Origin: Schmidtea polychroa
Lineage: Eukaryota
Assembly: GCA_044892525.1 (NCBI GenBank)
Contig: CM097885.1
Coordinates: 225,060,001 to 225,124,000 of the forward strand
DNA: 64,000 bases
Direction of reading: 5' to 3'
The notes beneath the pieces are model-generated. The model searched no databases and was not told where the DNA came from. It was given only the letters and a program-made list of their open reading frames with translations. Positions 4,701 to 61,737 of this stretch are shown here, piece by piece (position 1 is the stretch's first letter; each line of letters opens with the position of its first letter). The position numbers and the translations under genes are program-made.

Positions 4701-7700
4701 ACTCTATAATATGATTCAGCTGCCTCTTCCTGTAGTAAAACCGTTTTTTCGATAACAAAGAGGTTTGATTTGGCAATAAAGGACTCAAACTTCGTCAACA
4801 ACTCATATAAACATGGTACTCACTATTAAAATTAATTATATCATTACAGATATTAATTATAATGAAATTGTTAATTTGTTTGCAAATTGAAAGACAAAAG
4901 AAGGGCAATATAATATATATTTGGATTTATAGTTCCCAAAAGTTGTAATACTTTCAATTATAAGACTTTGCAGGGCCTATAAAAAGCTAGGTAATACACA
5001 GTATAAAATTTGAATATCAAGAAGACATCATTTTATTAAAAAGCTAGAATAGATCATATGAGTACAAAACATATTTTCCAAATAAAATTCTACTAGTATA
5101 ATACCCTGTCAAGATTGATGGGAAAAGTTAAAATGATAATAAAAATAAAGTTGATTTTTTGTAAATTTTATTTTTAAAATTTTTCTAGTAACTTAAAGTT
5201 AAATTGCCTTATAAACTACATTTTGAATGAATAATTTCTATTTGATCTGACACAAGTACAACAAATAAACAAATTAATGACGGCAATTATATTAATTATA
5301 AACAGGAAAATGTATGCAATAGTGCCACACTGTCAAAAGCACATGAAAATTAAAAGAAAAAGACTAAACAATCCATCCGGATATATCCATTCTTGTCTAA
5401 CTTACAACTCGACACACAACTTCACAATTGTTCATTTTTGACTAATAATACCAACAAACAAAAAATAGCAAATGAGAGAGACGCACAAATTGCTTGTTTA
5501 TAGCAGATTCAATTCGAACTTCACTGATTTTGTTAACTTGAGAATCGGGTATATCATAACAACGCATAATAATTTTATCCATTGGAATACAATTCGACAT
5601 TCTTTCAACTTTAGCTTTCATTATACAAAAAAATCTTTCAAAAACTCTATTAATTTAAATTTTAATCTTTCACAAATCTTTTACAATTTAAAACAATATC
5701 ATCGCAAAATTAGAAAATTACAACTTTAAACAAATTTAATAGAAAAAATCAAAAAATATTTACAAAATCAAAATACCAATTATGATTTAATTTCAAACAA
5801 AACAAACAANNNNNNNNNNNNNNNNNNNNNNNNNNNNNNNNNNNNNNNNNNNNNNNNNNNNNNNNNNNNNNNNNNNNNNNNNNNNNNNNNNNNNNNNNNN
5901 NNNNNNNNNNNNNNNNNNNNNNNNNNNNNNNNNNNNNNNNNNNNTTATAATTATAAATTATTAAAATAATGCATCCTATGTGCTCTTGAAAATTTTTAAA
6001 GAACTCAATGAAGCTGGCATTTGATCAGACTCACCTACCTAATCAATAAAGTCTTGAGAAAAACGAACTCTTGATTAAAACTCCGAGAAAAGAATATCTC
6101 TCGTAAGTTTGACAAATTGGTGTATGTATATCTGAAAACTCAAAATAAAAGAAAAAACGATTGAATAAGTGTTATTGTCGTTCTTCTACTCGTTCAGGTG
6201 TTTTGAAGAGCTCTGTTCACAAGCTCATAAAAACAAATTTATTTTCAGTTGAAGATTTGTAAGATAAATTTTTTTTTATTTCAGTGTAGATAAACAAAAA
6301 AATTTAGTAATTTTATAAGTCGAATCTTATTTATCAAAAGTATGATAATTTATTATAAACTAAAAGATTTTGTCCTCGGAGCACTCACTAAGATAAATTT
6401 AGATTTCCCAATCCCAATAATTACGATGATATTTTCACATTGTCATCACCACTCAATGTCGGCAGTTCTATGTCATATAACACATATATAACCACTCCAC
6501 TATCCGCATCACTTGATCCTTCATGCTTCATTTGATTTCACTCGTTTCAATCATTTTTCTTTAACGCTTTATTTATTAAACTGAAATTATATAAAAGACT
6601 AAATTTGTTTAAATGTTTTCAATCGATATGGCACATTTTTAGCGCAAAGTGTTTCCTATTTTTCTTGATAAATAAAAAAGTGAAAAATAAATTTATTAGT
6701 AATAATAATTACATAGCTACTGTGAAGTAGACTGCGTGATCAATTACTTTGCGTTACGTACGTATTGCAATTTATTTCTCTCGTCCAGTTTGCAATATCG
6801 GATTGATAATGAATAATTAAATAGCCAACCTCCCTAATGAGGATAGCGTGATATTCATTACTTAAAGCTTATAATTATTACCATTTGTTGAAAATCTTAG
6901 TGGCTTAATTTTGTATAGTTTCTAAGTGTTTCGTCAATTTTCTTTTTCACCAATTCAGATAAAATCCACGGAGTTAATCAAATAAAACTTGAAAACACCA
7001 GCTCTCCAAACTCAAATTATGAAGCAGATGAAAAAAATATCGATGAAACCGTCGAGTCTAATGAAATGTCTTCAGAAACAGATATGGGAAAGGAGCTGAT
7101 TGATCATAGCTCGATGCATGAAGCCTCAACTCTCGGAACAGAAGACGATGAAGGAAGTGGTGGATCTTGCTGTGAAAGTGATGACAAAATTGTACTTTCT
7201 ACCAAGCAAGGAATCACCAAAAAAGGCTCAAATAATTTGAGACAAAAAAGAGTTCGAACATCATTTAAGCATCAACAGTTAAGGACAATGAAAGCTTATT
7301 TTTCCATGAATCATAATCCCGATTCGAAAGATCTACGGCAACTTTCTCAAAAAACTGGTTTATCAAAAAGAGTTCTACAGGTAAAAGAATTATTAATAAA
7401 GAATGGAATTAGTAAAACTATTTAATTCTTTTCTGAAAATAAAAAAAATCAAACTTTTATATTTACTGGTATAATATAAAATTAATAAATGATAGGATAT
7501 ACATTTGTTGCAAATTATTGTTCCAAAATAATCGCCGGGCAAAATACAAAAATATTTTTAAAATATTAATAAGACTTTCCCTACTTATAATATATTATAC
7601 TATTTCATGGGAGTGTCTGACAAAAGAATGCGGCCTTTACTGAGAAGTTAGATTTTCTATTGCTTAGAATTTGTTTTTATATGAATCTTTGAAATCACAA

Positions 7701-26563: not shown

Positions 26564-27085
26564 CAGTAAACCCCCGCAATTACGACCTAATTGGTTGCTG
26601 AAAATAAGTCGTAATGTGAGCAGTCGTAAAGAGAGGTTTTATTTCCCATTGACCCAATGTCATAAATAGCTAATTCGTCGTAGGTCTTGAATTTCGCCTA
26701 TCTATTCTTTAACAAAATAATTTCATGCAACTAAATGCGAGTATAAGTAACACAAAATCACTAACGTAGTTCGAAGATCAATTCATTAATAAAGGAAGCT
26801 TACACTTGCTACAGACAAATATATTATGAAAAAAAACCATCAGTTCAAAAAACATTAGATTGTTATTATGAGGAAGTTTTATAATGAAGAAATTTTTAAA
26901 TTAATTTTTAGATTAATTTTTAAAAAAACAAAATAAGAAGATATTTTAATTAAAAATATCTTCGTAGAAAATTTGTTTAAATAAGAAAGTTTAAAGAAGA
27001 TATAATTTGATTTTGATATTTACTGAAATAAAATTTATGGAAACAAAAACTGATTTTAATGTTTTACAGAATGAACCTCCTAATA

Positions 27086-27098
27086 TGGTGGCAGCGGT
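27086..27098 (+). promoter_or_regulatory. Primer-binding site of element C, tRNA-Leu type
   Basis: TGGTGGCAGCGGT directly abuts the LTR and is complementary to a tRNA 3' end ACCGCTGCCA-CCA, as in eukaryotic tRNA-Leu(AAG/TAG). Confidence 0.8.
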
Positions 27099-28131
27099 AA
27101 ACACGGACGCAATCACCGAAAGATTGCTACCAAAGGTATTCTGCCAAGGTGACGACTTGGAAAAGTTCATTAAAAGATGCGAAATTTATTTCGACGCCAA
27201 GAGAATCACGCAGAAGAAAGATCAGGAAAGATTAACATCTTGCATGATTGATGAGGATCTCCTGGAAGTGTACGCCAAAACACTGAAAAAAGCCGAAGGA
27301 TTCCAGGCTAGGTTGCGATTGGCATTCGATCGCGAAAGAGATGTTTTAAAGGATCTACAAAACTTGTTGAATTACAAGCGGAAGGGTGAAGAAATAGAAA
27401 CGTATTTTAAAAAGGTGGAGGACCTTGTTGATAGGTTGTTCGAAAATAAAGAATTTATCAAAGAGAAATTAACAGCAAGGATGTTAATAGTATGTGCGGA
27501 GAATAAAGAAGTTGAGAAAGAAGATAAAAGACGGAAGACAAAAAGCACAGAAGAAATAAAGGAAACACTAACTCTGATGGACAAAGTAGACAAGCAAAGA
27601 GATCAGATAAACAGTATGAAAAGTTACGCCAGAGTGGTCTATCAGGAACCACAGGGAAGAGTACAATACAAGAAGAAAGAACAGAGAGAAGAAAGTATCC
27701 GAAGAGAAATGCCAGAATGCTGGTTATGCCACAAAATAGGACACACGAAAATTGATTGTCCAATAAAAGGTAAAATAGAATGCTGGACATGTCATAGAAG
27801 CGGACATATAAGTAGAAACTGTCCAGATAAAAAAGCTCCAAGATGTTTTGGGTGTGGGAAAGAAGGTCATATAAGAAGATTGTGTCAGGAAATACGTTGT
27901 GAAAGATGTAGCAGAAATGGTCATAGATCCGAGGAGTGTTATACAAAGATGAGGTACGGGAGAGCGACGGAGAGACAAAGATTCACGGGAAACAGATACA
28001 GTCGGATAAATGGTATCGAGAAAGAAGAAGAAAGGGAATCGTGTGTAGAGACAAATGAAGATAATTTTAGGAAGACGTACCCAAACAACAGGGCTCCACC
28101 AGTAGAGGAGTTGGTTGGAGCCATATTCTAA
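27086..28131 (+). CDS. Gag of element C with four CCHC zinc knuckles
   Basis: Open frame to TAA at 28129-31 (likely start at the ATG at 27085, MVAAVN...). CX2CX4HX4C occurs four times: CWLCHKIGHTKIDC, CWTCHRSGHISRNC, CFGCGKEGHIRRLC, CERCSRNGHRSEEC. Confidence 0.9.
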
Positions 28132-31100
28132 CAGAAAATTGGATGGGATATCCTCAAGGGGCAGAAAAGTGGGAGAATATTGGAAGGGTAAGCGAGAAAG
28201 TATACAGGTTCCTAAAGAGAGAAATGTTTGAAGAGGAAGTGGAAAGAATTGGAACCATTGAAACGGAGCAGGTTGTTGAAATTTTGTATAACAGAATGCA
28301 AGGAAGGCCTAGTATAACAGTAAGGATGAATGGGGAAAATTTCAACTGTTTATTAGACACTGGTGCAAGAATCAATGTAATGAGTGTGAACTGTTTTAAC
28401 AAGCTACGAGGACAAAAATTGACGAAAAGTGACGATAAGTTACGATGCGCAAACGAGAGTACGATCGAGACAATAGGAAAAACGAAGGTGCAAGTAACCA
28501 TTGGAAATGTTTCGAAGGAAGTTATATTCATTGTGGCGGAGAAAGTGACACCAGACGTGATTGGAGGAATCGAATTACAAGAAACATTTGGATTTAGACT
28601 GTTAAAAATTAAAGATATCGAGGCTAGTGAAAAAGACAAGAACTATATTTGTAACATTGAAGCAAAATTTGGCAGAAAAATAAAGGATGAAGAACGATTG
28701 ATACGAGCGTTGGAACAGTTAAAGATCAATGAAGATAGCAAATTAAAGGAAATTATAACAAACAGTGGAAACGTGTTTATGGCAGATAAATGGGATGTGG
28801 GTCGCACACATTTGGTAAAACACAAGATAGTTACAAGAGGTGAGCCGATAAACATAAAACCATATCGCCAACCACTAAATTTGGAATCAAAGATTGAAGA
28901 AGCAATACAAAATTTGTACGAAAATGGAATTATACGGAAATGTAACTCTCCATGGAATACACCGCTAATATGGGTATGGAAAAAAGAGAAAAAGGATATT
29001 AGACTATGCTTAGACTTTAGACAGCTGAACGCGGTAACAGAGAGGCAGGCATTTCCAATGCCAAACATAGACGAGATGTTGGATTTGTTAGGAGGATCCG
29101 TCTTTTTCAGCTCAATCGATCTAGGTAATGCATATTACCAAGTGGAACTAGAAGAAAAATCACAGGAGAAAACAGCTTTTTCAACAAAGAACGGACAATA
29201 TTGTTTCAACAGAATGCCGTTTGGAATTGCAGCAGCACCAGGTACGTTCCAAGAAATTATGACAAAAGTATTAGGCAAAATAAAGGGAGCAATGGTGTAT
29301 TTGGACGACATCTTGATTTATTCAAGCAGTAAAGAGAAACACTATACAATACTCGGAGAAGTGTTAAAGGCGATTGAGGAAGCAGGCCTAAGGATTAATC
29401 CAGAAAAATGCCAAATAATAAAGGAAGAAATCAGATTCTTAGGACACATAATCAGCAAGGAAGGAGTACAGACAGATCCATCTAAAATTCAGGCCATACA
29501 GAACTTTGGGAAGCCTAATTGCGTAAAGAAACTCCGAAGCTTTTTAGGTATTTGCAATTATTATAGAATATTCATCAGTGATTATGTAAAGAAGGCAAGG
29601 ATGTTAGAACAATTATGTAGCGGACCAAGTAACAAAAAATTAGAATGGAGTGAAGGAACGAATAGCGTGTTTGAGGGATTGAAATTAGCACTCACGACGG
29701 CACCAATCTTATGTTTTCCGGATCTGAAAAAAGAGTTCATTTTAGATACTGACGCTAGTTTCCATACCATTGGAGCAGTACTTTCACAAAGAGATAAAGA
29801 TGGAAAGGAAAGAGTAATTGCGTATGGATCACACTCGATGACGAGCCACGAGAAAGGATATTGTATTACAAGAAAGGAACTATTGGCGGTATATTATTTT
29901 TGCATTCATTTTAAGCACTATCTCTACGGAAGAAGATTCACGCTCGGACAGACCACAAGGCAATCACGTTTATGATGACAACCAAGAAGCCGATTACTTC
30001 ACAATTCCAAACATGGATCAATTATTTGAGCAGTTTAGATATAAGAGTAGAATACAGAAAGGGTATTAATCACCAAAATGCAGACATGGTGTCGAGAACT
30101 AAATGTGACACGTGTGTTCAATGTCAAATGGCCCACGAAGAAGCTAAGAAAGGAAAGATAAAAACCAGATTACTAGACTCGATCAGAGAAGAGGGAAGAA
30201 GCAACATCCAACATGGAATTGTAGAAGAAGTACGAAAGAAAACGAGGATACCTGAAAATGAGTTACAAGAAACAATAAAGGAAATACATAGACTATTGTG
30301 TCATGCTGGAGTCGAGAAGATAGCCGATTATATGAAAGATAGATATGTTGGAAAACACCTGTGGAGTCAGATTCAGGAAATTGTTCGAAGTTGTGAGATT
30401 TGTCAAAAAACCAAGGCTTTAACAATAACAACGAAAGAACCAGTAAAAAAACAAGATTCGAAGGAAATGTTCGAAATTATATTCGTGGATATATGTGGAC
30501 CGTTGGCAGAAACAAAAGGACGTAAGAAGTATATATTGGGCATAATAGATCAGTATAGTAAGTATCAAGTCTTGACAGCGATAACAAAACAAGACGAAGA
30601 AACAATAAAGAAAACGATTTTAGAAAAGTGGATTTTAAGATTTGGATGCCCAAAGGAGATAAGAGTTGATTGCGGAAAGGCGTTTGAATCAGGAATAATG
30701 AGAGAATTCACAAAGATGCTAGATATTAAATTATGTTTTTCGAGTCCATACCATCACCAAACAAACGGTCAGATAGAAAGACAATTCAGGACAATACGGG
30801 ATTTGATAAATGCTACTTTACAGGATAGAAAGAAGACGGATTGGGCAGAGATATTACCAGAAGTCGAATTCACTTTAAATGCAACCAAACAAAAAACGAC
30901 AGGGAAAAGCCCGGCAGAGATAGTTTTTGGAAAAAAGATTAGCAGGGAAAAATGGTACGGGTCCAAAGAAATACCGATAAAGGAAGAACTAGAAGAACAA
31001 ACAAGGAGAAAATCCAATGTAGGAGAAGAAGTATTAGTGAAAGTAGAAACACGCCACAAAGGCCAAGACAGGTATGAAGGTCCGTACAAAGTGATAGAGA

Positions 31101-31198
31101 AAGTGCATGACAGACGATACATCTTAAGAAATGAAGATGGAAAAAGGATCGAAAGAAATGTGGAAAAACTTAAAAATTTCTTAAGAAGGGGGATATGA
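28071..31198 (+). CDS. Pol of element C (protease, RT, RNase H, integrase) with a single 1-nt frameshift near 29945
   Basis: LLDTGA, SPWNTP, LCLDFRQLN, RMPFGI, YLDD, LDTDAS, HRLLCHAG..CEIC, VDICGPL, VDCGKAF, GQIERQF, GPY. FTL-GQTT versus expected FTL-RTDH indicates one missing base. Confidence 0.92.
28080..28122 (+). promoter_or_regulatory. Candidate -1 programmed ribosomal frameshift signal (gag-pol)
   Basis: C CCA AAC heptamer in the gag frame, 5-nt spacer, then the hairpin GGCTCCA-CCA/TGG-T-TGGAGCC. The pol frame is -1 and open from 28071. Confidence 0.78.
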
Positions 31199-31886
31199 GG
31201 AAGTTTTATGATGAAGAAATTTTTAAATTGAAAATTTTAAAAATTAAATTTTAGATTAATTTTTAAAAAAACAAAATAAGAAGATATTTTAATTAAAAAT
31301 AAGAAAGTTTAAAGAAGATATAATTTGATTTTGATATTTACTGAAATAAAATTTATGGAAACAAAAACTGATTTTAATGTTTTACAGAATGAACCTCCTA
31401 ATAGTTATTTTAAGAAGACTCCAGCTATTCTTGGGGGGTGCTCAACCTGTATGTGTCAGCCAATCAATGGAGGTTGATAATAGAAAGGTGATAGAAGATT
31501 TTACAATTGAAAATGATGTAGTTGCAATCGACGATGACCCCATTGAATTGTGCCCTTCTCAATCACACGAAAATTGTAGTTTAAATTTTTTTATGAAAGA
31601 AATATTGTTTGTATTTTAAATATTATTCACTAGATATTATTCACTTATTAATAAATATTAAAAATAAACAAAATACTTAATAATATTCGGTAGTATTGTG
31701 ATTGAAAACATGAATGTCTAGTATTTTGTTACAAAATTAGTCATTATACTTTCATTGAAGTTAGGGCCTAACTATTGTAGGTTGGGTAATGCGTGGCTAG
31801 GCTAGTCGTAATTGTGAGTCAAGGTCGTGATTGGCCTCAGAAAACGAGGTCGTAAAACCGGGCGGTCGTAAGGCGAGGGTCTACTG

Positions 31887-34327: not shown

Positions 34328-34664
34328 GGATCAAGTTCAAAATCCCCCCCCGTAAAAATATTAATAAAATATACAAAAAAAAATAAAAAAACATAAAAAA
34401 AGTTAAAAAATATATATTCATAAAATGTACGTGTACAGTATACCTTAGCAGTACCCTTGGGGGGTCAAATTCCTTTTTCGGATAAACCATACTATATATA
34501 AAATAATAATAATAATAATAATAATAATAATTATTATTATAATTTTATTAATTTATTATTCATTTATTATTTAATTGTTATTTATTTAATATTAATAATA
34601 TTTATTTAAACAAGGTCAAAATCCCCCCCCCCCCCCCTGCCGGGGGGGATTTTGACCTTGATCC
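34328..34664. mobile_element. MITE with GG termini and 8-bp TSD (Merlin-like), 337 bp
   Basis: TIR GGATCAAG(T/G)TCAAAATCCCCCCC at both ends; perfect TSD CTTGTTTC (34320-27 and 34665-72); an extra internal TIR copy at 34611 makes a 19-bp hairpin with the right end. Confidence 0.8.
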
Positions 34665-34672
34665 CTTGTTTC

Positions 34673-35879
34673 TGTGCACGCTTATCGCAACCATTATTTC
34701 GCGCACCATACCCAGTTAACCGATTTTTTATGATGTCCTTGATTAAAAGGTTCATTATGTTGGCGTATGTGGGGAGGAGAAAATATATACACGCCCTTCT
34801 ATCTAGCCTATCAAGCCTCATCATTTCGTTTAGACATTTCCCCTACATACCCCAAATGATCATTCGCATATTCCCACGTATGAGCCCGTGGTGATGTTCC
34901 ACGTTGGTGCTGCTCACACGGGTCGGAAAGAATTAGCAGGTGAGCCCCTGCCTTAGGACTACTCCTAACTCTTTCTCTGTTCGGGTTCTACGGTGCCTTA
35001 GAAGGACTTACCCATGCTTCACGCATCATTTGGTCCGCCCTGGTCCAAAGGGGACGACATTCAAGCTTCTACTGCTCCTTCAGGATCTTCTACTCATGAA
35101 ATTCAATCATAGCCAATCATACATATAAATCAATCAACATACCTATAGCTTCGAAAAACTGGAATGAAATCAAATGTAAACTGGTCTCGAATAAATTAAA
35201 TGTAAGTTCTGAAATCTCTGTGATGATGGTTCGGTACTCTGTGGAATATCTGCAAGTTGAAATCTGTAATCGTGAAAATTAAAAGTGGGTGTAAGTTTTT
35301 CTAAAATTTTACCTGTAATCGTGAAAATTAAAAGTGGGTGTCTTCTAATTTTTCACGTTACATATATAGTATTTTTCGTCCAATCAGGACGCTACCTGCT
35401 TGTATTTTTACTATTTATTATTATTTTTATGTTTTTATCGTCGTATATTAAATTTTTAATGACTTGACTTACCTCTTATTATTGTTTTATTTATTTTCTT
35501 ATTTTTCTCCATTTTTCCTGTGGACTTATTGTCATTTTATTGCAATATCATTTTTTGTTTTAATTAAACCTAAAATGGTTTTATTTTTATTTATTTCTTA
35601 AATTTCTTGTTTATTTGTTTTTCGCTTTTTTACTTATTCGCCTTCTATTTTATCCACTGGGTGTCCCAAATCGTTTTATTTCTAAATCTTAAGGGGTTTA
35701 TTGAGTTTTATTTAGTTTTGTTTTACTTATTCTTATTTTCTTATTGGTATTTTATTGTTCCTTTCTATTTCCTAGTGAGATCTTGCTGGTACTTTATATT
35801 TTTATCTTATTTCATTTATCTTTCGAGGTTTACCTTTTTATTCGTTCCAGCTTTCTCCACTCTGCATTTTAGCCCAACA
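34673..35879 (-). mobile_element. LTR-like element E1: putative 5' LTR 35879-35175 (TGTTGGGCT...TTACA) plus decayed internal region
   Basis: Starts TGTTGGGCT, then an A-rich tract, CCAAT (35380), TATA (35368-62) and a 29-bp direct repeat. Ends CGAGACCAGTTTACA|TTTGA, like E2. A weak integrase-like IFSSPHTPT motif lies near 34790. Confidence 0.55.
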
Positions 35880-36579
35880 ATTATATTTGATAATTGAAAT
35901 TTATTAAATTGTAAAATGTCAATTAATTAAAAAGTATAATTCTATGTAATATCTAAATTAATTTTGATTAATAAATTTTAATTAATTAAAATTTTAATGA
36001 AACAAATATCCATTTAAAATATTAAATTTATTTAAAAGATTTATAATAAAATTTATTATAAAATTCTTTTTAATGAAATAAAATAAAATTAATAGTGGAA
36101 TTTTGATGGCTCGATCATTTCCAATTTTGAATTGAAACATGTCTTCCACTTCAAACTTCTAGACACATTGATGCCTGTTTTTTTCATAAAATTTGCCACT
36201 TATTTTCACAAGACATAATTGAAAATATTTTTTTTCAATTACATTTTAATATTGCAATGATATTTACAAATTTTCAACTTTTCAAGAGCCCTCAACTAAA
36301 TAGTCTTTGTATTATACATTCTTGTTTACAAAATATTTTTGACATTCAATTTAATAAATATTTTGTAAAAATAAGTTTTAAATATTGAAACAATTAAATA
36401 AAATCAAAATTTAAATTAATAATTTTTGAACATAAAATATTATTTATTACGTAGTAAAATTAGTTTAAAAATTAACAAGCGCGTAAGGGTACATTACTAA
36501 ACATACTTTTTAATATTTATTATATGGTTGTTTCATAATTATTATCTGGTATGTTGAACCATTTGATTGGGAGTTAATC

Positions 36580-47763: not shown

Positions 47764-48449
47764 CAAACTTATAGAATTAAAAGTATTATTAAAACAATTA
47801 CTAAATTACGACCTTAAATAAAATAGAAATAAAAACACAGATTTATTGAATAATATTACGCGATAGTCAAGTAAAACTTGAACTCATCATATTAAATATG
47901 TATATTGGCTTGTATAGGATAAAATCCAATTTAAATCCAATTTAATTCAAAATATCTGATTGAAAAACTTATGTAGATATGATCAAATTTACACAAAATT
48001 AAATTTATATTAATAAAAAATTTCAAATAAAAAGTAAAAAAAATACTGATAGTGGATTCGCAAAAGCTAATTACTATATTCCTTAGATTAATCGTTCTGT
48101 GGGGTAGTGACAATTGACCAAATTTCATCTCCTTGACAACTAACGTGCTTCATCCTCAGGGTTGTTACTATTATTCGAATTCCAAAAAGTCGCAACTTTA
48201 AAACAAAGTTTGATTCCACCAAATCACACCTATCAGAAGTGACAGTGGTACCGTGTAGCTTGGGTGGGACGCGAAAACCAGTTGAAAATTCCCCAGGCTT
48301 ATTAAGTTTCAAATTTTTCGGGTTCATATGTAACACATTTCTAATGATAGCTTCAATTAATAGTAATTGGTTAGTTCTCAAACAAATTTGAAATAGAGTT
48401 GAGATGTGCATTCGAACAGCAACACCAAGATACATTGTCGATTCACTTG

Positions 48450-48680
48450 ATGATGTTTCATAAATTGCCATAGTGTGAGATATAGGATCACTAGATTTCA
48501 GAACGATTCGTGAGTTACGACCTGAAGTGTACAAAGAAAGAACTTCTCGAATTGAAAAATACATCATTAGTGCATTAAATGTCTCCAACATAATTTGAGT
48601 CATGGATACCATGTCTGCTTTGGGAATATTGAAAAGAACTTCTCAGTTCCATGCGAAAGAGTTAAAATGAACAAAGATAT
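48450..48680 (-). pseudogene. Actin fragment (decayed)
   Basis: [49 protein letters not shown] aligns to actin [49 protein letters not shown]. The conserved DSGDG loop is destroyed and the homology stops afterwards. Confidence 0.75.
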
Positions 48681-50049: not shown

Positions 50050-52385
50050 ATTGACACGTTTCCTACTTATATTTCATTCATACTATCCCGTACCACCATG
50101 GTTGGATTAAAAGATTTTAGTACGGATCCTGGGAGTAAGATACCCTTAAGAGGTAGAATGATTCGTCGAACTCTTAATATCAAGGTATATTGTTACAAAA
50201 GGAAAATTCAAGACTTCGAATTTCAGTTTCGTCGGTTAACCTAAAACCACAAAAACGTATCCTGGTCGGCATTTGAGATTAATTCAGAAGGGTCCGAATA
50301 CTGTAATTGGCGCTTATGTGGTTTGGTTAGAATTTCGCTGATTCCCCAAGCAAGGTCACTATAATTAGTCAAATTGTGACCCCGATTATTATCCACAATA
50401 ATCACCAAACATTATTATTATTATTTAGACAAATTAATTGACAGTTTTCTAGCCATTGCCCGGTGTGACTATTCATGCTTCAGTTCGTGGTCGTTGATTG
50501 TATAGTGTAGCGCGTTGGCGATATGACTGTTGTTATTGGCAGTTGTCTCTACGAGTTGATAAGTTTTGTGTTGTTCCTCAGGCTAGTCGTTATCTAATGC
50601 GATCACGGGTTGTTGTTCACATCACTGAAATTGTAATTGAGTGACATATAGTGGATGACTCGATATCAGAAAATTGCTAGCCAGTGAGGTGACTTCTCAC
50701 GTATTTTCATGGGCAGATGACGTGTGCTAGATGCATAATGTTTAGCTATATGGGTAAGATTTGGTGGGATTATCAATTTGTCTATTCATGCGATGTCGGA
50801 GAATTTTACTGCTGTCTCACATTTGTCTATTTCCCGTCTCGTCTAAAAAGGTTGGAATCTATTATTATGAATCGAAAATTCTACAACTAGATATATTTAC
50901 TGATGGAATTCCCAGCTTTCCCAGGAGACGGCTACAAATTTCAGTGGAGGACATCCCGCATGGATCAATTGGAAAATATTAAACAGGTAACACCAAATTT
51001 GGTTTAATATGTGTCTAAAAATAAATTTTTTCTCGTAAATCTGATTTTTCGATTTAATTTGTTTCCTATAATTGCTATTCGACCGTTACATGTATTCACG
51101 TTGTATGAAATTGGAAAACTAAACTTCTCTCAAGTTTGTTGATAAAAATGAAGATTATAGTCCAGTCCTCGAAGTGCCACGGAGACTCGTCAGCGATGGA
51201 AATGAAGCGATTATTTAAAGTAATGCTACAACTCCAGAGGTGTAGCTAGTGGCAGTGCGAACGTCTTAGAAGAGGACGACTTGCATCGTAGAATCATTAT
51301 GGAAGTTCCCTCAGTCATTGTGAAGCATGTGGCTTAACTTTTTCCCACTTTCAGGGTACACCGTTTTGAACTAATATTCGTTAGTTTACTGGATTTTAAT
51401 GTCACCTTCAGCGATAGGACCCGTGAGGAAGCCCCCACATTCCGGCCCAATACAGCTGCGTGATTGAAGAACCTCATGTCCACCGGCTGAGCTCCCGAAG
51501 GCACCTCATACCATGACATGAAGTTCCTCAACTCCACGTTACTCATCAAATGAAAATTCAGAAAATATCTAATTCAAATAATAAAACATAGACATCTAGA
51601 TAAAAATTATTTATTAATTCTATAATACTCAAACATGAAAATTTCATTAAAACATTAAAAATTACTAAATATGGAATCAAATGAAGAGGTTAATAAAGAA
51701 TTTACTATAATTCAGCCTTCATAATTACTTTAAGGTATTAAAATTCTAAACAAAAGTTCGGCTTACCAATACACTAGATGCTGAGCTGAGTCAAAAATTC
51801 AAATCTAATGTTTCTGAAAATTAGGCTGTTCGCTGTGAATCTGAATAGTTCTCAAATGTTGTCTCGGTTCCTCGTAGCTTCTGTAAGTATTTGCTGTAGT
51901 TGGTAAGGTGTTGAAGTTAACTGTGATCTGTAAAATTTTCTGAGTAAACGGTCTCTATCAAAATCTCACTTACCTATAAAATTTTCTGAGTAAACGGTAA
52001 TCCTAATGATTTTGGTGCCGCTTTATATAGTGATTTTTATTTTATGCGGACCAATCAAAATCGAGTACCGCTTATTTCTATTAATTTAATATAATTTTCT
52101 TGTTTTTAGGTTGTTTTTTCTTATTTTCTTTATTTTTGATATGTTTTTCTATTTATTTCTTTAGTTTCCTTATTATTTATTAAATTCTTCCTTATTTATT
52201 TGTCAACTTGTTGTTCCATTTTAATCTTTTCTTAATTTTATTTTTTTTTGTTTTAATTCTTGTGTCTTAATTATTATTTTTCCTATATCTTATTTTATTT
52301 TATCTTTAATTTCGTTTATTTTATTTTTATTTTCCTTAATGTTCTACTTTCTTATTTTTTAACGATTAAGTTTTTGGACTCAGCC

Positions 52386-52390
<5 letters not shown>
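50050..52390 (-). mobile_element. LTR-like element E2: putative 5' LTR 52390-51857 (TGTTG...CAACA) plus decayed internal region
   Basis: Starts TGTTGGGCT next to a (TA)n run, then an A-rich tract, CCAAT, TATATAAA (52029-22) and a 25-bp direct repeat. Ends CGAGACAACA|TTTGA. Internal pieces are weakly integrase-like (SSTEICSRLLGKLGIPSV; VFGPF). Confidence 0.55.
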
Positions 52391-52424
<34 letters not shown>

Positions 52425-52769
52425 CTGAAAATATGTATAAATATATTTGTTATAGCTTTCGAAAAGTTTTGGGTGGACGTTGCTTACAATACAGCCAAGG
52501 TAACCATGGGTGCCAAAGCCTTGGTCACGGAATTTCGATTAATCAATTTGACATTGTTCCATTCTCACCATGTTATCAAAATGAGCACAGAGAAAGCACA
52601 TCAAGGAGAGCCAAATGATTGTACTGGATTTAAGAGTCACGTCACAAGAGTATACCATCTTAAAATTACTTTTCCACGTCCACGAGAGACTCGGGTTAAA
52701 GGCCATTTACAATGAACAAGAACTGTTTAAAATGTTTCAAATCCCCGACTTATACCATGAACCAAGCTA

Positions 52770-55302
52770 CAGTCTTCCACCGAATATAGTACGCGCGCTT
52801 TTTTGTTTTTTTAACGTTAAAACATTTTTATGTTTCTATATTATATATATATATATACATACGTATAATATTATTAGAAAATAGAAATCAAATGACTTGT
52901 GTTTATAGTGTACACGCAATATTAATTTCTCAATCAAAATGATTATGTAGAATAATCATACTCAATAAAAGTATGTATGTATATATGTATTGTAAACTAT
53001 TCAAAATAGAATTTTTGATTCAATTTAAAAACTTCACTTGTAAATTCAAAAATACAAATCTAAGTAGGCGTTGCTTAATTTTCGCGAAAATATAAAATAT
53101 GTAATTCTTTTGTTTACGTTTAGTTTCATTAGAAATTTGGTGACACATATATCTAAATATTTGTTCTAATTAGATCAGGTTTTGTTTAAAATAAAATTTC
53201 TTTAAATAAGTACATAACTTATAATTTATTAAAACACCATACGATGAGCAGCAATAAAACACTTTCAACCAGAAAAAATTATACAATCAAGAAAAAGGTT
53301 GATATATTAAATGAAATTAAACCAGGTGAACCAGGAAAGAGTTGTCGTGCAATTGCTAAACTACATGGAATTAATGAATCGGTATTACGTGGTTGGAAAA
53401 ACAAAAAAGAGAATCTTCTTAAGGCGGTAAGTGATGTAAATATTTGTACCCGTATATGCAGAAGATTAGCTGGTGATGGAAGGCAAATGGAATATGAAGA
53501 AATCGAAAACAAAGTTCTACAGTGGGTTTTGTTACGAAATAAGAAAGGAATCCGTGTAAAAGAAAAATATATTCAATTAAAAGCTTTGTCAGTTCGAAAT
53601 GATTTTATAGCACATGGCGGTAATGAAGAGTTAAACAAATTTCAAGCATCAGCCGGATGGGTTGACCGCTTCAAAAAGCGAAACAATTTAACTTCACGAC
53701 GATTTACCACTACAAAGAAGATTCCGGACAATGTAGATGAAATTTGTAGAAGTTTCATTCAGAATTTTCAAGGTTTCGTTGCGAAAATGAATGTAAAAAC
53801 TGAAAATATAATCAACTTCGATCAAGTCCCACGGTACTTTGAATGTGAGCCAAAAAGTACGATAACTTCAAAAGCTACGCGAGAAGTCTTTTTGCGTAAA
53901 TCGTCAACGTCGCACAAATGTTTTACTTTGACCTACGCAATTACTGGTGCAGGTAAGGTTTTAAAACCTCATCTACTCTTTTCAGGACTTGTTAATAAAC
54001 CTACTGTAGAACAGCGATGTTTAGTTGAGGTAAATCGTACAGGCATGTGGAACGAAAACATTTTAAAAAACTTCATTTCTGATGTAATTCTAACGAGAAG
54101 ACAAACAGCTTTCAGTAGAGAACCTGTTCTTATTTTGATGGACTCCTATGGTACACATGTTAAGTTTTTTGAATCAGAAAACGAGAAACAGAAATATGCG
54201 AAACATAACATTCATTTCATGCTAATACCACCAAATATGGCCGGATTGCTGCAACCAGAGGATGTCTCACTTAATAGAAGTTTCCAGCAACATTATTCTA
54301 CAAATTATGATAAATATCTTGCAGATGCCTTAAAAGATGATAATTCCACATTACGAACAAAGGCCGGAAATATTAAATCACCTAATTATTCTATCGTTTC
54401 CAAGTGGATTCTAGAATGGATCGACTCTTTGTCCAACGAAACTGTGCAAAAAGCTTTTAAAGTTTGCGGACTGGTACCAAAGGATAAATTCGACATTCAT
54501 AACTTGCATGAGCCATTAAGAAAATTTTTCGATGATTCAACATTTAAATTTGAAGAGTGGGAATCAAGTTATGGACAGATTTTGAAACAAAACAATAATT
54601 TTTTCTTGAATAATGATTCTGAATGGCACTGGCCTCTTGACATCCGCACGAGTTTTTTTCATTGTATTTGGAAAGCAAGTAATGAAACTGAAAGTGATTT
54701 CGAAAGTTGGCTTCCTAAATTTACTCGTAAAGTTTTTAAATTTATTGACAAATATGCCGTCTGCAAAGAATTGCTGGATGATTCTGAAAGAAACTGTCTT
54801 CAAAATGGTGAATATACTGGAACCAATATTGAAATTTTTTCAGTTTCTATTATAAATAATTGGAAAATTCAAGTCACAACTTTAGATGAGGAAGCATGTG
54901 AAGTGTCGAGCTTTATTTATGGGTCTAACTCAACAGTAAAAAATATTCATATTATTAAGCACAAGGACTTTTTCGGCTTACAATTATAAATTTTAATTAC
55001 CTTTTTTTAATTTATGAATTTTAATTTAATTTTATTTTATTTTGAATTGATTTTGATTTTATTTAATTAAATGAACTGATTTGAACTATGTGATATTATT
55101 TGAACTAAGAATTAATAATAAAATTACAAAATAAAAGTATGAAACTTTTATTATTTAACTCTAAAATTGAATTTCGAATATAGTACGTGCGTGTTATATT
55201 TGAGTGCGCATTTAATTTGAAAAAAACTAAAATATTTCAAATATAAAATAATTTCAGAAAACTCGAATATAACGCGCGCGTACTATATTCGGTGGAAGAC
55301 TG
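52770..55302 (+). mobile_element. Intact-looking pogo/Tigger-type DNA transposon, 2533 bp
   Basis: Perfect 29-bp TIRs CAGTCTTCCACCGAATATAGTACGCGCGC; TA TSDs at 52768-69 and 55303-04; one uninterrupted ORF. Confidence 0.95.
53244..54989 (+). CDS. pogo-family transposase (psq/CENP-B HTH plus DDE_1) with a C-terminal extension of about 120 aa
   Basis: RKNYTIKKKVDIL HTH, FQASAGWVDRFKKR, catalytic NFDQVP / LMDSYGTH / LLQPEDVSLN; 581 aa. Confidence 0.93.
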   Translation: MSSNKTLSTRKNYTIKKKVDILNEIKPGEPGKSCRAIAKLHGINESVLRGWKNKKENLLKAVSDVNICTRICRRLAGDGRQMEYEEIENKVLQWVLLRNKKGIRVKEKYIQLKALSVRNDFIAHGGNEELNKFQASAGWVDRFKKRNNLTSRRFTTTKKIPDNVDEICRSFIQNFQGFVAKMNVKTENIINFDQVPRYFECEPKSTITSKATREVFLRKSSTSHKCFTLTYAITGAGKVLKPHLLFSGLVNKPTVEQRCLVEVNRTGMWNENILKNFISDVILTRRQTAFSREPVLILMDSYGTHVKFFESENEKQKYAKHNIHFMLIPPNMAGLLQPEDVSLNRSFQQHYSTNYDKYLADALKDDNSTLRTKAGNIKSPNYSIVSKWILEWIDSLSNETVQKAFKVCGLVPKDKFDIHNLHEPLRKFFDDSTFKFEEWESSYGQILKQNNNFFLNNDSEWHWPLDIRTSFFHCIWKASNETESDFESWLPKFTRKVFKFIDKYAVCKELLDDSERNCLQNGEYTGTNIEIFSVSIINNWKIQVTTLDEEACEVSSFIYGSNSTVKNIHIIKHKDFFGLQL

Positions 55303-55817
55303 TAGTTGTTCCTCCATAGCAAAGACGTTTGTCAAAAACGCACGGGAAAGAACGAGTAGAAACGATTTATCCGTTAAATGACTACTACTAGCTAGAACAA
55401 ACAATGAAGTTTCTCCATCAATTGGACATGTTGAGGTCAGTATATTAAAATAAATTTAAATAAAATGTAGGTCAAATGAAAAATAGAAGTGTGGTCATGC
55501 ACATAATTGATAGCAAAGGAGATTATGATGGAAACAATATTAGGAAATAGCAAAAGCAGTTACGAAAGGCAAAAATCCTAGAACCCAGAAAATCAATAAA
55601 TTGTAAATTTATCGAAATTGAATCGGAAAAACGGGACAGGTATAGATTAGGTAATGGTCAACAAGATGGTGATTAGAGATTAGTTTTAGAGAATAGTTTT
55701 AATATAATAACATGCATGAGTTAGAATGTGATATCTTTTACGGTTATTCCATGAGCACAAAGGTGCGCAAGGGCATTAAAAGTTCAAGTAATGGTTCGTT
55801 TGCCGATGGTCACCCAC

Positions 55818-56098
55818 GGTTCTGGGACAAAATGTCACCGGACAAAATGTCGCAGACAAAATGTCGCGGACAAAATGTCGTGGACAAAATGTCGTCGACA
55901 AAATAGCGTGGACAAAATATACATACTCAGAGTTTATTCGACAAAATATTTTGTCCCCCTATGGGTATTGGTCGCAAAGGTACTGATCACACTCAACATT
56001 TATACCATGATATTTTGTCCATGACATTTTGACACGACATTTTGTCCACGACAGTTTGTTCACGACATTTTGTCCACATAACATTTTGTCCGGCCACC
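55818..56098. mobile_element. Mutator-like foldback MITE, 281 bp
   Basis: Perfect 9-bp TSD GTCACCCAC (55809-17 and 56099-107); inverted arrays of a roughly 15-bp GGACAAAATGTCG unit; GGT termini. Confidence 0.85.
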
Positions 56099-60202: not shown

Positions 60203-61737
60203 CAGTGGTTCCCAAAGTAGGCGCTACCGCCCCCTGCTGGGCGCTGCAGCGATCCAGGGGGCAGTGATGGTTACATGTGCATTTTAGGGCGATGAATAGC
60301 TGTAAGTGGGCGGTGAAAGTATAAAAGTAAGTCAATAAAATTGCGTTGAGGTATTCATGTACAATCCCGCACCGCTACTGTTCATAGGATGCTATTGAAT
60401 TGCGAGCGTAATATAACTGTAAGTTAGATTGTTGTGATATTGTCACTAGTTAAAGTTAACTTACTAAATTGGTAGCAGCATATCAGATTCATCCTTCTCA
60501 TTAAGATGATTTCGGACTTTTTCTTTTTTTGTATTATACTAGTTTTTCAATAACAAATTCAATAAAAAGTTTCATTATTTGTAATTTACAACTTTCTTTA
60601 CTATATTTTACGAAAAGGGTGGAAACATTAATACATATAAGTTGTGTGATGGTTTAGTAGACTTAAGAGGCAAAAGTAAGTCAATAAAATTGCGTTGAGG
60701 TATTCATGTACAATCCCGCACCGCTACTGTTCATAGGATGCTATTGAATTGCGAGCGTAATATAACTGTAAGTTAGATTGTTGTGATATTGTCACTAGTT
60801 AAAGTTAACTAACAGATAGTGCGTCTATAATTGGTAAGTATTATTTATGTCGCGGAAATGCGATTTTTGTTTTCTTCTATTTGTGTTACTCTGTTGAGCA
60901 TAAAGATGCTGTTTTTGAGTTGACTATTAAATTAGCGATACACAATTTACACATAACCGTTAGTTAAAATAAATAAAGGCAATTAAAATAAAGTTAAATT
61001 AGTTTAAAATACAAATTGTTAGTAAAATTCTGGTTGCAAAAGGAGATTCCTTCTGCGTATTCTGAAATATGGGCTTTAATTCAAAAGTTCTTAATTGCAT
61101 TTCATTCATCATATTTGGTGAAACGCGCATTTAGTGCGGTAACAAATTTATTAACCAAAAAAGAAACCAATTGGAAATAGTCAGGCGCGGTGATTTAAGG
61201 ATTGCTGCTGACAAAAATAGAGCCGAGGATTACTAAATTGGTAGCAGCATATCAGATTCATCCTTCTCATTAAGATGATTTCGGACTTTTCCTTTTTTTG
61301 TATTATACTAGTTTTTCAATAACAAATTCAATAAAAAGTTTCATTATTTGTAATTTACAACTTTCTTTACTATATTTTACGAAAAGGGTGGAAACATTAA
61401 TACATATAAGTTGTGTGATGGTTTAGTAGACTTAAGGGGCTTCTTCATAAAACTCTGTACTTTGTTTAAAATTTATCTCTTTATATACTTTTTCTCCTCT
61501 CCTTTCTAACCTCCTTTTTTACTATTCACTAATTTCCTTATTAGTACTATCATTACCTATCTTGATCATCACTTTCCATATTTGTTAATTATTCCCCATC
61601 TGAAAATCACTTTCCTTTTCTGATTAATCAGATTCTTTTAGTATATATTTCTGCTTAAATGCTATTAAAATAGGGGCGCTGATTAATATTTTTTTGTGGA
61701 AAGGGGGAGGTTGATCAAATAAATTTGGGAACTACTG
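60203..61737 (+). mobile_element. hAT (Buster) deletion derivative with an internal duplication
   Basis: TIR CAGTGGTTCCCAAA / TTTGGGAACTACTG; TSD CGCTAGAC / CTCTAGAC; transposase tail SSYLVKRAFSAVTNLLTKK..RRGDLR..TKIEPRITKL..YQIHPSH* at about 61110-61272. Confidence 0.85.

Follow-up and report, generated by a model that had tools for sequence, protein, structure and literature searches.

Introns are lost when spliced RNA is reverse-transcribed, and it may be asked how an intron could then be kept in the terminal repeat of an element that multiplies by way of RNA. This question is raised by a locus, here designated E1, on the minus strand of a 64,000-nucleotide stretch of the Schmidtea polychroa genome (assembly GCA_044892525.1, contig CM097885.1, positions 225,060,001 to 225,124,000; the whole of this stretch is referred to as the window). 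Identical 29-mers are found in E1 at 35341-35313 and 35292-35264 (29/29), and the second of them ends a 49-nt GTAAAA...TTACAG segment that has the appearance of a small intron. The motifs listed in an earlier, sequence-only reading of this DNA (the start, the CCAAT on the plus strand, the TATA, the 29-mers, the 49-nt segment and the TTTGA motif) were each recovered at the position given for them. Together with the other features of the locus they are arranged as follows.

35880..35883, minus strand: target site duplication TAAT (minus strand), upstream copy, 4 bp (from the sequence)
34758..35879, minus strand: E1, very probable solo LTR of 1122 bp with a 6-bp terminal inverted repeat (from the ends, the length, the fall in depth at both ends and a flank-joining contig)
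35390..35879, minus strand: A-rich upstream part (49-59% A), predicted U3, holding all 11 AATAAA of E1 (from composition)
35380..35384, plus strand: CCAAT box, GATTGG on the transcribed strand (from the sequence; putative function)
35361..35368, minus strand: TATA-like box TATATATG, first T at 35368, 27 nt ahead of repeat copy 1 (from the sequence; putative function)
35313..35341, minus strand: repeat copy 1, 29 nt, predicted exon 1 and start of R, with CAG preceding the donor (from the TATA spacing and the boundary of identity)
35264..35312, minus strand: predicted intron, 49 nt, GTAAAA...TTACAG (from the sequence; predicted splicing)
35293..35312, minus strand: unique spacer, 20 nt, comprising the donor and a variable part (8/20 identity to the 20 nt before copy 1)
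35264..35292, minus strand: repeat copy 2, 29 nt, the 3' end of the predicted intron, co-varying with copy 1 in the family (from the sequence and variant tables)
35143..35263, minus strand: predicted exon 2, 121 nt
35189-35170, minus strand: motif CGAGACCAGTTTACA followed by TTTGA, taken earlier as the E1 end, within predicted exon 2 (from the sequence)
35137..35142, minus strand: second donor-like site, TAG/GTATGT, with an E2 equivalent, GTAAGC, at 51766 in the same order (read from sequence only)
34760..35030, minus strand: GC-richer 3' part with two predicted hairpins and a predicted terminal stem (34855 to 34760; fold prediction compared with shuffles)
34754..34757, minus strand: target site duplication TAAT, downstream copy, 4 bp (from the sequence)

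The window is AT-rich animal DNA, with a GC content of 20-38% in most 1-kb bins, and contains LIM and homeodomain exons, several Gypsy-type frames and one Tc5/DDE_1 transposase; a search of the whole window against Rfam at the gathering score gave no matches. A compact Gypsy element on the plus strand (26865-31403) has gag (CCHC), pol and integrase frames, LTRs of about 220 bp ending TA...TA and a 5-bp target duplication, GTTAT. Its 5' LTR is followed by TGGTGGCAGCGG, which we take to be a leucine tRNA site; the gag frame opens in the LTR and extends across the primer site, and the LTR has an acceptor-like TTTTACAG. At 55825-56093, 14-bp units form a palindromic array of two opposed blocks, and interleaved near-identical duplications of 142 and 211 bp occupy 60323-61440.

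The extent of E1 has to be established before its repeat can be interpreted. On the minus strand the termini are TGTTGG at 35879 and CCAACA at 34763-34758, and on both sides they are flanked by TAAT, which makes up 1.4% of all 4-mers in the window. The TGTTGGGCT start at 35879 has a single other occurrence in the window, at 52390, where it opens a second element, E2. The sequence-only reading had placed the end of E1 at 35175, which turns out to be an internal motif: depth stays high across 35175, and the sequence continues to the CCAACA and then to TAAT. Contigs of four runs were placed on 34500-36100 (n = 2150, 1097, 173 and 73; they are mostly less than 99% alike, and these numbers do not represent copy number). 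Their summed depth drops at 34716-34769 and 35850-35957, with no drop at 35175; in run X5 the bins from 35201 to 35040 have depths of 1590, 965 and 1118, and the bins just outside the E1 ends have 79 and 226. One X5 contig, from another study, connects 34758 with 35883 (depth 34.9, shorter side 50 letters). As it carries five extra letters at the joint it does not represent a clean empty site, and no flank-joining contig was found among the other three of the four runs placed on this interval. Record 8 of run X1 matches the inserted E1 junction exactly.

Owing to the terminal motifs, the paired TAAT, the depth profile and the flank-joining contig, E1 is read as a discrete insertion with LTR-type ends. 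It belongs to a dispersed, multi-copy family of high copy number, and we are confident, short of certainty, that the copy described here is a solo LTR. The missing primer site, which had been regarded as a puzzle, is accordingly no longer one, since a primer site is not expected after a solo LTR with its target duplication and no separate explanation is needed. A search for a tRNA-type primer site found no TGG within 9 nt after any of four candidate ends. For Tf1-like self-priming, the best complements to the predicted spliced leader after the candidate ends are 5-7 nt long, and with the first 20 nt they reach 7 nt in E1 and 10 nt, at a distance of 1.25 kb, in E2; all of these were judged to be chance matches. 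A tblastn search with the 11 retroelement frames of the window gave no match near E1 or in the downstream part of E2, and no Gypsy protein, internal region, primer site or enzyme is linked to E1 within the window. By self-comparison there is no second E1 copy or tandem partner in the window, and E1 contains no long internal direct repeat that would represent two LTRs, as a TRIM would need.

The predicted fold of the 3' part has a z score of -1.9 (7/200 shuffles), and that of the last 247 nt (35000-34754) a z score of -2.7 (2/100); the terminal stem of E1 alone, compared with shuffles, is not significant (24/200). In three of the four runs, bins 34878-34985 belong to the most deeply covered of E1; many contigs diverge on either side of them, and this stretch is probably a module common to several LTR families. 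At 34611-34660, 100 bp past the E1 end, C and G runs are surrounded by an inverted repeat that has a partial third copy at 34328-34351 and is probably separate from E1. Downstream of the TATA-like box, E1 contains no AATAAA, ATTAAA or AATATA, a point against the cycle considered below. A role of the E1 intron in poly(A) suppression was considered and dropped, as the intron contains no such hexamer. The sole poly-T loose end listed, at 35444 in one X10 contig, lies upstream of the TATA-like box; if it were a true RNA end no R would be left, and it possibly reflects priming on the A-rich part.

How unusual the arrangement is was assessed by scanning both strands of the window for AG/GT...AG segments of 35-120 nt whose tail repeats the sequence ahead of the GT. 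Two loci were found, E1 (49 nt, 29/29) and E2 (46 nt, 24/25). In 60 block-wise 2-mer shuffles the mean number of hits was 0.017 when at least 14 matches were required and zero when at least 20 were. A relaxed repeat scan added four loci, all of them simple or tandem repeats without GT, and scans of metagenome contigs and viral contigs for the layout pattern gave no matches. The repeat has a distinct boundary: the in-register identity falls from 29/29 in the unit to 8/20 directly upstream of copy 1, which is the predicted start site, and in the E2 counterpart it is 24/25 in the unit versus 7/21 upstream. In E1, copy 2 is followed by AT and not by GT.

Judged by its letters, the predicted E1 intron fits what is expected of a U2 intron, with GT...AG ends, a branch-like TTAAT (its A at -16, within the repeated part) and a length that the host appears able to splice. 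Two host introns, both deduced from reading frames, serve as controls. When 42 nt at 47424-47383 are taken out as an intron, two open frames are joined in a gene that is presumably ATP12-like, and the same CAG/GTAAAA donor is present at 7381 in an intron of the LIM-homeobox gene. Near the ATP12-like gene there is also a degraded actin-like frame (48088-48642, minus strand; Pfam Actin, E 3e-6, below the cut-off). An RNA that starts at copy 1 and loses the predicted intron would equal the genome read from copy 2, letter for letter. For this reason the test of splicing by RT-PCR or RNA-seq that had been suggested would be uninformative as proposed.

The second locus is described by two features.

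50302..52390, minus strand: E2, candidate extent about 2.1 kb, with a tentative end (3/4 match to the upstream four bases)
51928..51998, minus strand: E2 counterpart of the repeat, with a 25-nt copy 1 (51998-51974) and a 46-nt GTAAGT...TTACAG segment ending in a 24/25 copy (from the sequence scan)

E1 and E2 share their first nine bases and the order of their features. Their repeat units are unrelated, as had been claimed before: the alignment score of the two units is reached by 204 of 500 shuffles. The case for shared ancestry is the common feature order; in the alignment check only one of eight segments, the promoter (10/500, uncorrected), beat most shuffles. The corresponding values are 35/500 for the start, 43/500 for exon 2, 43/500 for the region after the second donor, 65/300 for the E1 tail and 166/200 for the E1 hairpins; the U3 parts gave 39/200, and their 62% match, considered as homology, was rejected because composition explains it. 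We regard a common ancestry of E1 and E2 as plausible. The candidate E2 end (50302-50410, minus strand) is similar to that of E1, and the predicted stem that it closes is likewise similar, though made of other pairs (2/200 shuffles). After the second donor of E2, at 51400-51570 on the minus strand, a long hairpin is predicted (z -4.3, 0/200 shuffles) that has no sequence match to the E1 hairpins. A Tc5/pogo-type transposon (52767-55305) with an open frame of 599 amino acids and 35-bp terminal inverted repeats (97%) is located 400 bp from the E2 start.

The duplication might have been private to the E1 copy, which would have counted against the sequence-only reading by its own account; instead, both copies are present across the family and vary together. 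Over the repeat region 66 records were placed from run X1, 53 from X5, one from X7 and three from X8. The variant data are tables of changes and not contig sequences, 11 indel rows and 103 pieces lie outside the rows listed, and the word size of the contigs is 31 letters; X8 and X10 are guessed to be RNA runs, none of the runs being on record as RNA. One added base follows position 35323 in copy 1 and, 49 nt further on, position 35274 in copy 2; these paired insertions account for 55% and 61% of the summed depth in X1 and for 45% and 46% in X5. In X8 the rows were assigned to the three records via depth and coordinates. In copy 1, record 19 (depth 42.9) carries a change at 35319 and the insertion behind 35323; both recur at the mirror places of copy 2 in the loose end of this record. 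In record 18 (depth 5.5) a base is missing at 35284, and the mirror base at 35333 is missing in the loose end. Of the four placeable copy 1 changes, three are each mirrored within a single contig; for the fourth (35316) the mirror is seen only in the loose end of a separate X5 contig. Two short contigs underlie this phasing, and record 19 carries further differences at unprinted places.

Variation is unevenly distributed around the two copies. Among the rows listed, the 20-nt spacer has four substitution sites and five indel rows, and there are no changes at 35308-35315 (CAG/GTAAA) or in the final CAG. At 35290-35292, the first three bases of copy 2 and the predicted transfer junction, there are indels in 4 of the 12 indel rows listed. 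Since both copies are found family-wide, co-vary and retain their splice dinucleotides next to a changing spacer, the layout is considered to be maintained. The earlier argument for selection on the architecture is nevertheless incomplete: the perfect identity of the copies is more readily accounted for if one has repeatedly been copied onto the other.

No joint that skips the intron is listed in X1 or X5 at a threshold of 3%. The sole X7 contig (depth 3.9) skips 59 letters and has 10 others instead, a net difference of -49 nt, and reads as TATA, one copy and exon 2. This contig may represent a spliced read-through RNA, an intron-less copy or an assembly collapse, the last being conceivable because the unit and a shared G make 30 nt, against words of 31 letters. 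If it is RNA, read-through transcripts could be spliced, which would speak against the unspliced 3' LTR step of the cycle considered below. In loose ends from X1, X5 and X8 the last seven bases of copy 2 are tandemly repeated (35261-35275), so that some members have consecutive acceptor-like sites.

We propose, with somewhat more belief than doubt, that the predicted first intron of the E1 solo LTR is rebuilt by strand transfer in reverse transcription. Transcription would start at the first base of copy 1, and at its 5' end the genomic RNA would lose the 49-nt segment by splicing, so that it would begin with copy 1 joined to exon 2. The 3' LTR part of the same RNA would stay unspliced and end beyond copy 2. 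The minus-strand strong-stop cDNA, complementary to copy 1 and exon 2, would anneal best to copy 2 and exon 2 at the 3' end of the RNA, where it could pair over its full length, compared with only 29 nt at copy 1. Extension from copy 2 would recopy the spacer, copy 1 and U3 and would produce a new LTR that contains the intron and in which copy 2 is derived from copy 1. In each round the intron would thus be restored and copy 2 overwritten by copy 1. Such a cycle would lead one to expect what is observed, namely that identity stops at the start site and at the donor, that changes are mirrored, that the spacer varies freely, that the E1 and E2 units are unrelated and that the first bases of copy 2 are untidy. 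In retroviruses and Ty1, errors are known to occur where strand transfer takes place.

The co-variation and the splice signals also bear on other explanations of the repeat. It is unlikely, but deserves serious weight, that the solo LTR has a real leader intron which is spliced in the mRNA only, the genomic RNA remaining unspliced as in retroviruses, and that the repeat goes back to a tandem duplication that created the intron, the likeness of its copies being due to occasional local conversion or to a recent origin. Intron gain via a duplicated AG/GT segment is established, according to the accessible part of PMC3265369; record 19 of X8 is unspliced, and GTAA opens both the spacer and the 20-nt stretch ahead of copy 1 within their 8/20 match, as would be left by a 49-nt duplication. 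However, the reverse transcription of unspliced RNA has no route for copying changes between the units, whereas three changes are mirrored in phase next to a spacer that diverges, and the AT behind copy 2 of E1 stands where a duplication would be expected to leave GT. Still less probable is a repeat that is no intron at all, being a duplicated promoter, initiator or strand-transfer signal with incidental GT and AG, the copies of which are equalised by out-of-register cDNA annealing. The frequency of AG and GT in AT-rich DNA, the weakness of GTAAAA as a donor by general consensus and the lack of any direct sign of splicing at 35312-35264 in the contigs placed would all agree with this. They have to be set against two unrelated units that both end in YAG followed by GT, segments of 46-49 nt with branch-like sites, the canonical GTAAGT donor of E2 and splice dinucleotides that show no change in the family among the rows listed; moreover, out-of-register annealing without splicing would delete the spacer, and no such joints are listed in X1 or X5.

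Whether E1 is an LTR at all can be questioned in the same way. That it is a non-autonomous cut-and-paste element, or a Penelope-type pseudo-LTR, carrying a promoter and an intron by chance seems to us very improbable. Cut-and-paste elements with a 4-bp duplication (e.g. Ginger) have terminal inverted repeats of tens of bases, compared with just 6 bp in E1, and TG...CA ends together with a 4-bp duplication fit a retroviral-type integrase. In favour of such an element, E1 could be connected with neither a primer site nor a polypurine tract nor a coding region, and Penelope pseudo-LTRs contain an intron of 75 bp and a repeat of 34-37 bp along with the start site, as described in PMC2377424. On the other hand, with no Rfam matches in the window there is no recognised hammerhead, which most Penelope clades have, and E1 is a single unit with its own target duplication and no tandem partner in the window, which differs from the partial-tandem arrangement of the Penelope type. 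Finally, the duplication could be without consequence and the mirrored variants artefacts of placing short contigs on a repeat, which we consider barely credible. Units of 29-31 nt are indeed close to the 31-letter word size, and in X1 the depth of copy 1 is about five times that of copy 2. Yet the records that fit two places number 0/66 in X1, 1/53 in X5 and 0/3 in X8, and both phased records cross their own spacer variants, showing both copies together.

Rebuilding of the intron by strand transfer, which we prefer, can be compared with known systems. According to the available part of PMC4558846, flatworm LTR elements and solo LTRs mostly have 4-bp target duplications, the Echinococcus ta-TRIM and lennie solo LTRs resemble E1 in having TG...CA ends and mostly 4-bp duplications, and isolated Echinococcus LTRs act as promoters and can donate splice sites. 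The ta-TRIM LTRs differ from E1 in their length of about 198 bp, and neither an intron inside the LTR nor an exon-copy repeat is described in that part of the source. The planarian giant Gypsy-like elements Burro and GYPSM1, whose LTRs enclose a giant internal region with a gag-env-pol polyprotein, are similar to E1 in having long LTRs in an AT-rich animal genome. In the excerpts of PMC6431247 at hand, they have LTRs of several kb, an internal region of up to 25 kb and a total length of over 30 kb, and LTR introns are unmentioned there. The E1 LTR of 1122 bp is below this several-kb size and has no polyprotein linked to it, although a shorter relative is conceivable. The HTLV-1 LTR is like E1 in having a donor and an acceptor in an LTR-derived segment, as far as the available portion of 10.1101/2023.01.28.526022 describes it; these sites were seen in a vector, and that portion describes neither an exon-copy repeat nor regeneration.

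Two further systems concern introns of this kind directly. The accessible sections of PMC2377424 and PMC8557442 describe Penelope-like elements that, like E1, have a short spliceosomal intron near the start site in the terminal repeat and keep it through retrotransposition. Deletion of this intron abolished reporter protein in Drosophila, and the reason for its retention is stated there as unknown. Unlike what is proposed for E1, their pseudo-LTRs originate from tandem insertion and not from strand transfer, and the same sections do not describe the intron end as a copy of exon 1. In the Rogers model, as given in the available text of PMC3265369, a duplicated segment ending in AG supplies the donor with its first copy and the acceptor with its second, and splicing restores a single copy and defeats ordinary RT-PCR. 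Such a gain is a one-off event after which the copies diverge, whereas here the copies stay identical while the families diverge, and the second AG is without GT. The words 'intron' and 'splic' do not occur in the available part of PMC8532177. An exon-copy intron inside an LTR is not described in the literature searched, the scope of which lay outside subscription journals, Grohme 2018 and Repbase, the last two of which may cover these LTRs.

The lack of introns is one of the cues by which animal cells recognise mobile DNA, as reported for human cells in the accessible part of PMC8770142. A layout that restores its intron at the first strand transfer would, if true, be an exception within ordinary LTR replication, and it would offer a testable parallel to the question of intron retention in Penelope-like elements, which is treated as open in the available part of PMC8557442. 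In such LTRs the repeat boundary would provide a marker of the transcription start that can be read from DNA alone. The E1 locus contributes a revised boundary, a contig in which the flanks are joined, and variants of copy 1 and copy 2 that are in phase with each other. Tentatively, and with less assurance than for E1 itself, the proposal may be extended to LTR retrotransposons generally: exon 1 would also serve as R, the intron would have the twin of exon 1 as its 3' end, and every cycle would rebuild the intron at the first strand transfer, E1 and E2 being two lineages with unrelated units. What such elements might gain is an exon-junction mark, by which their RNA could pass as a host transcript.
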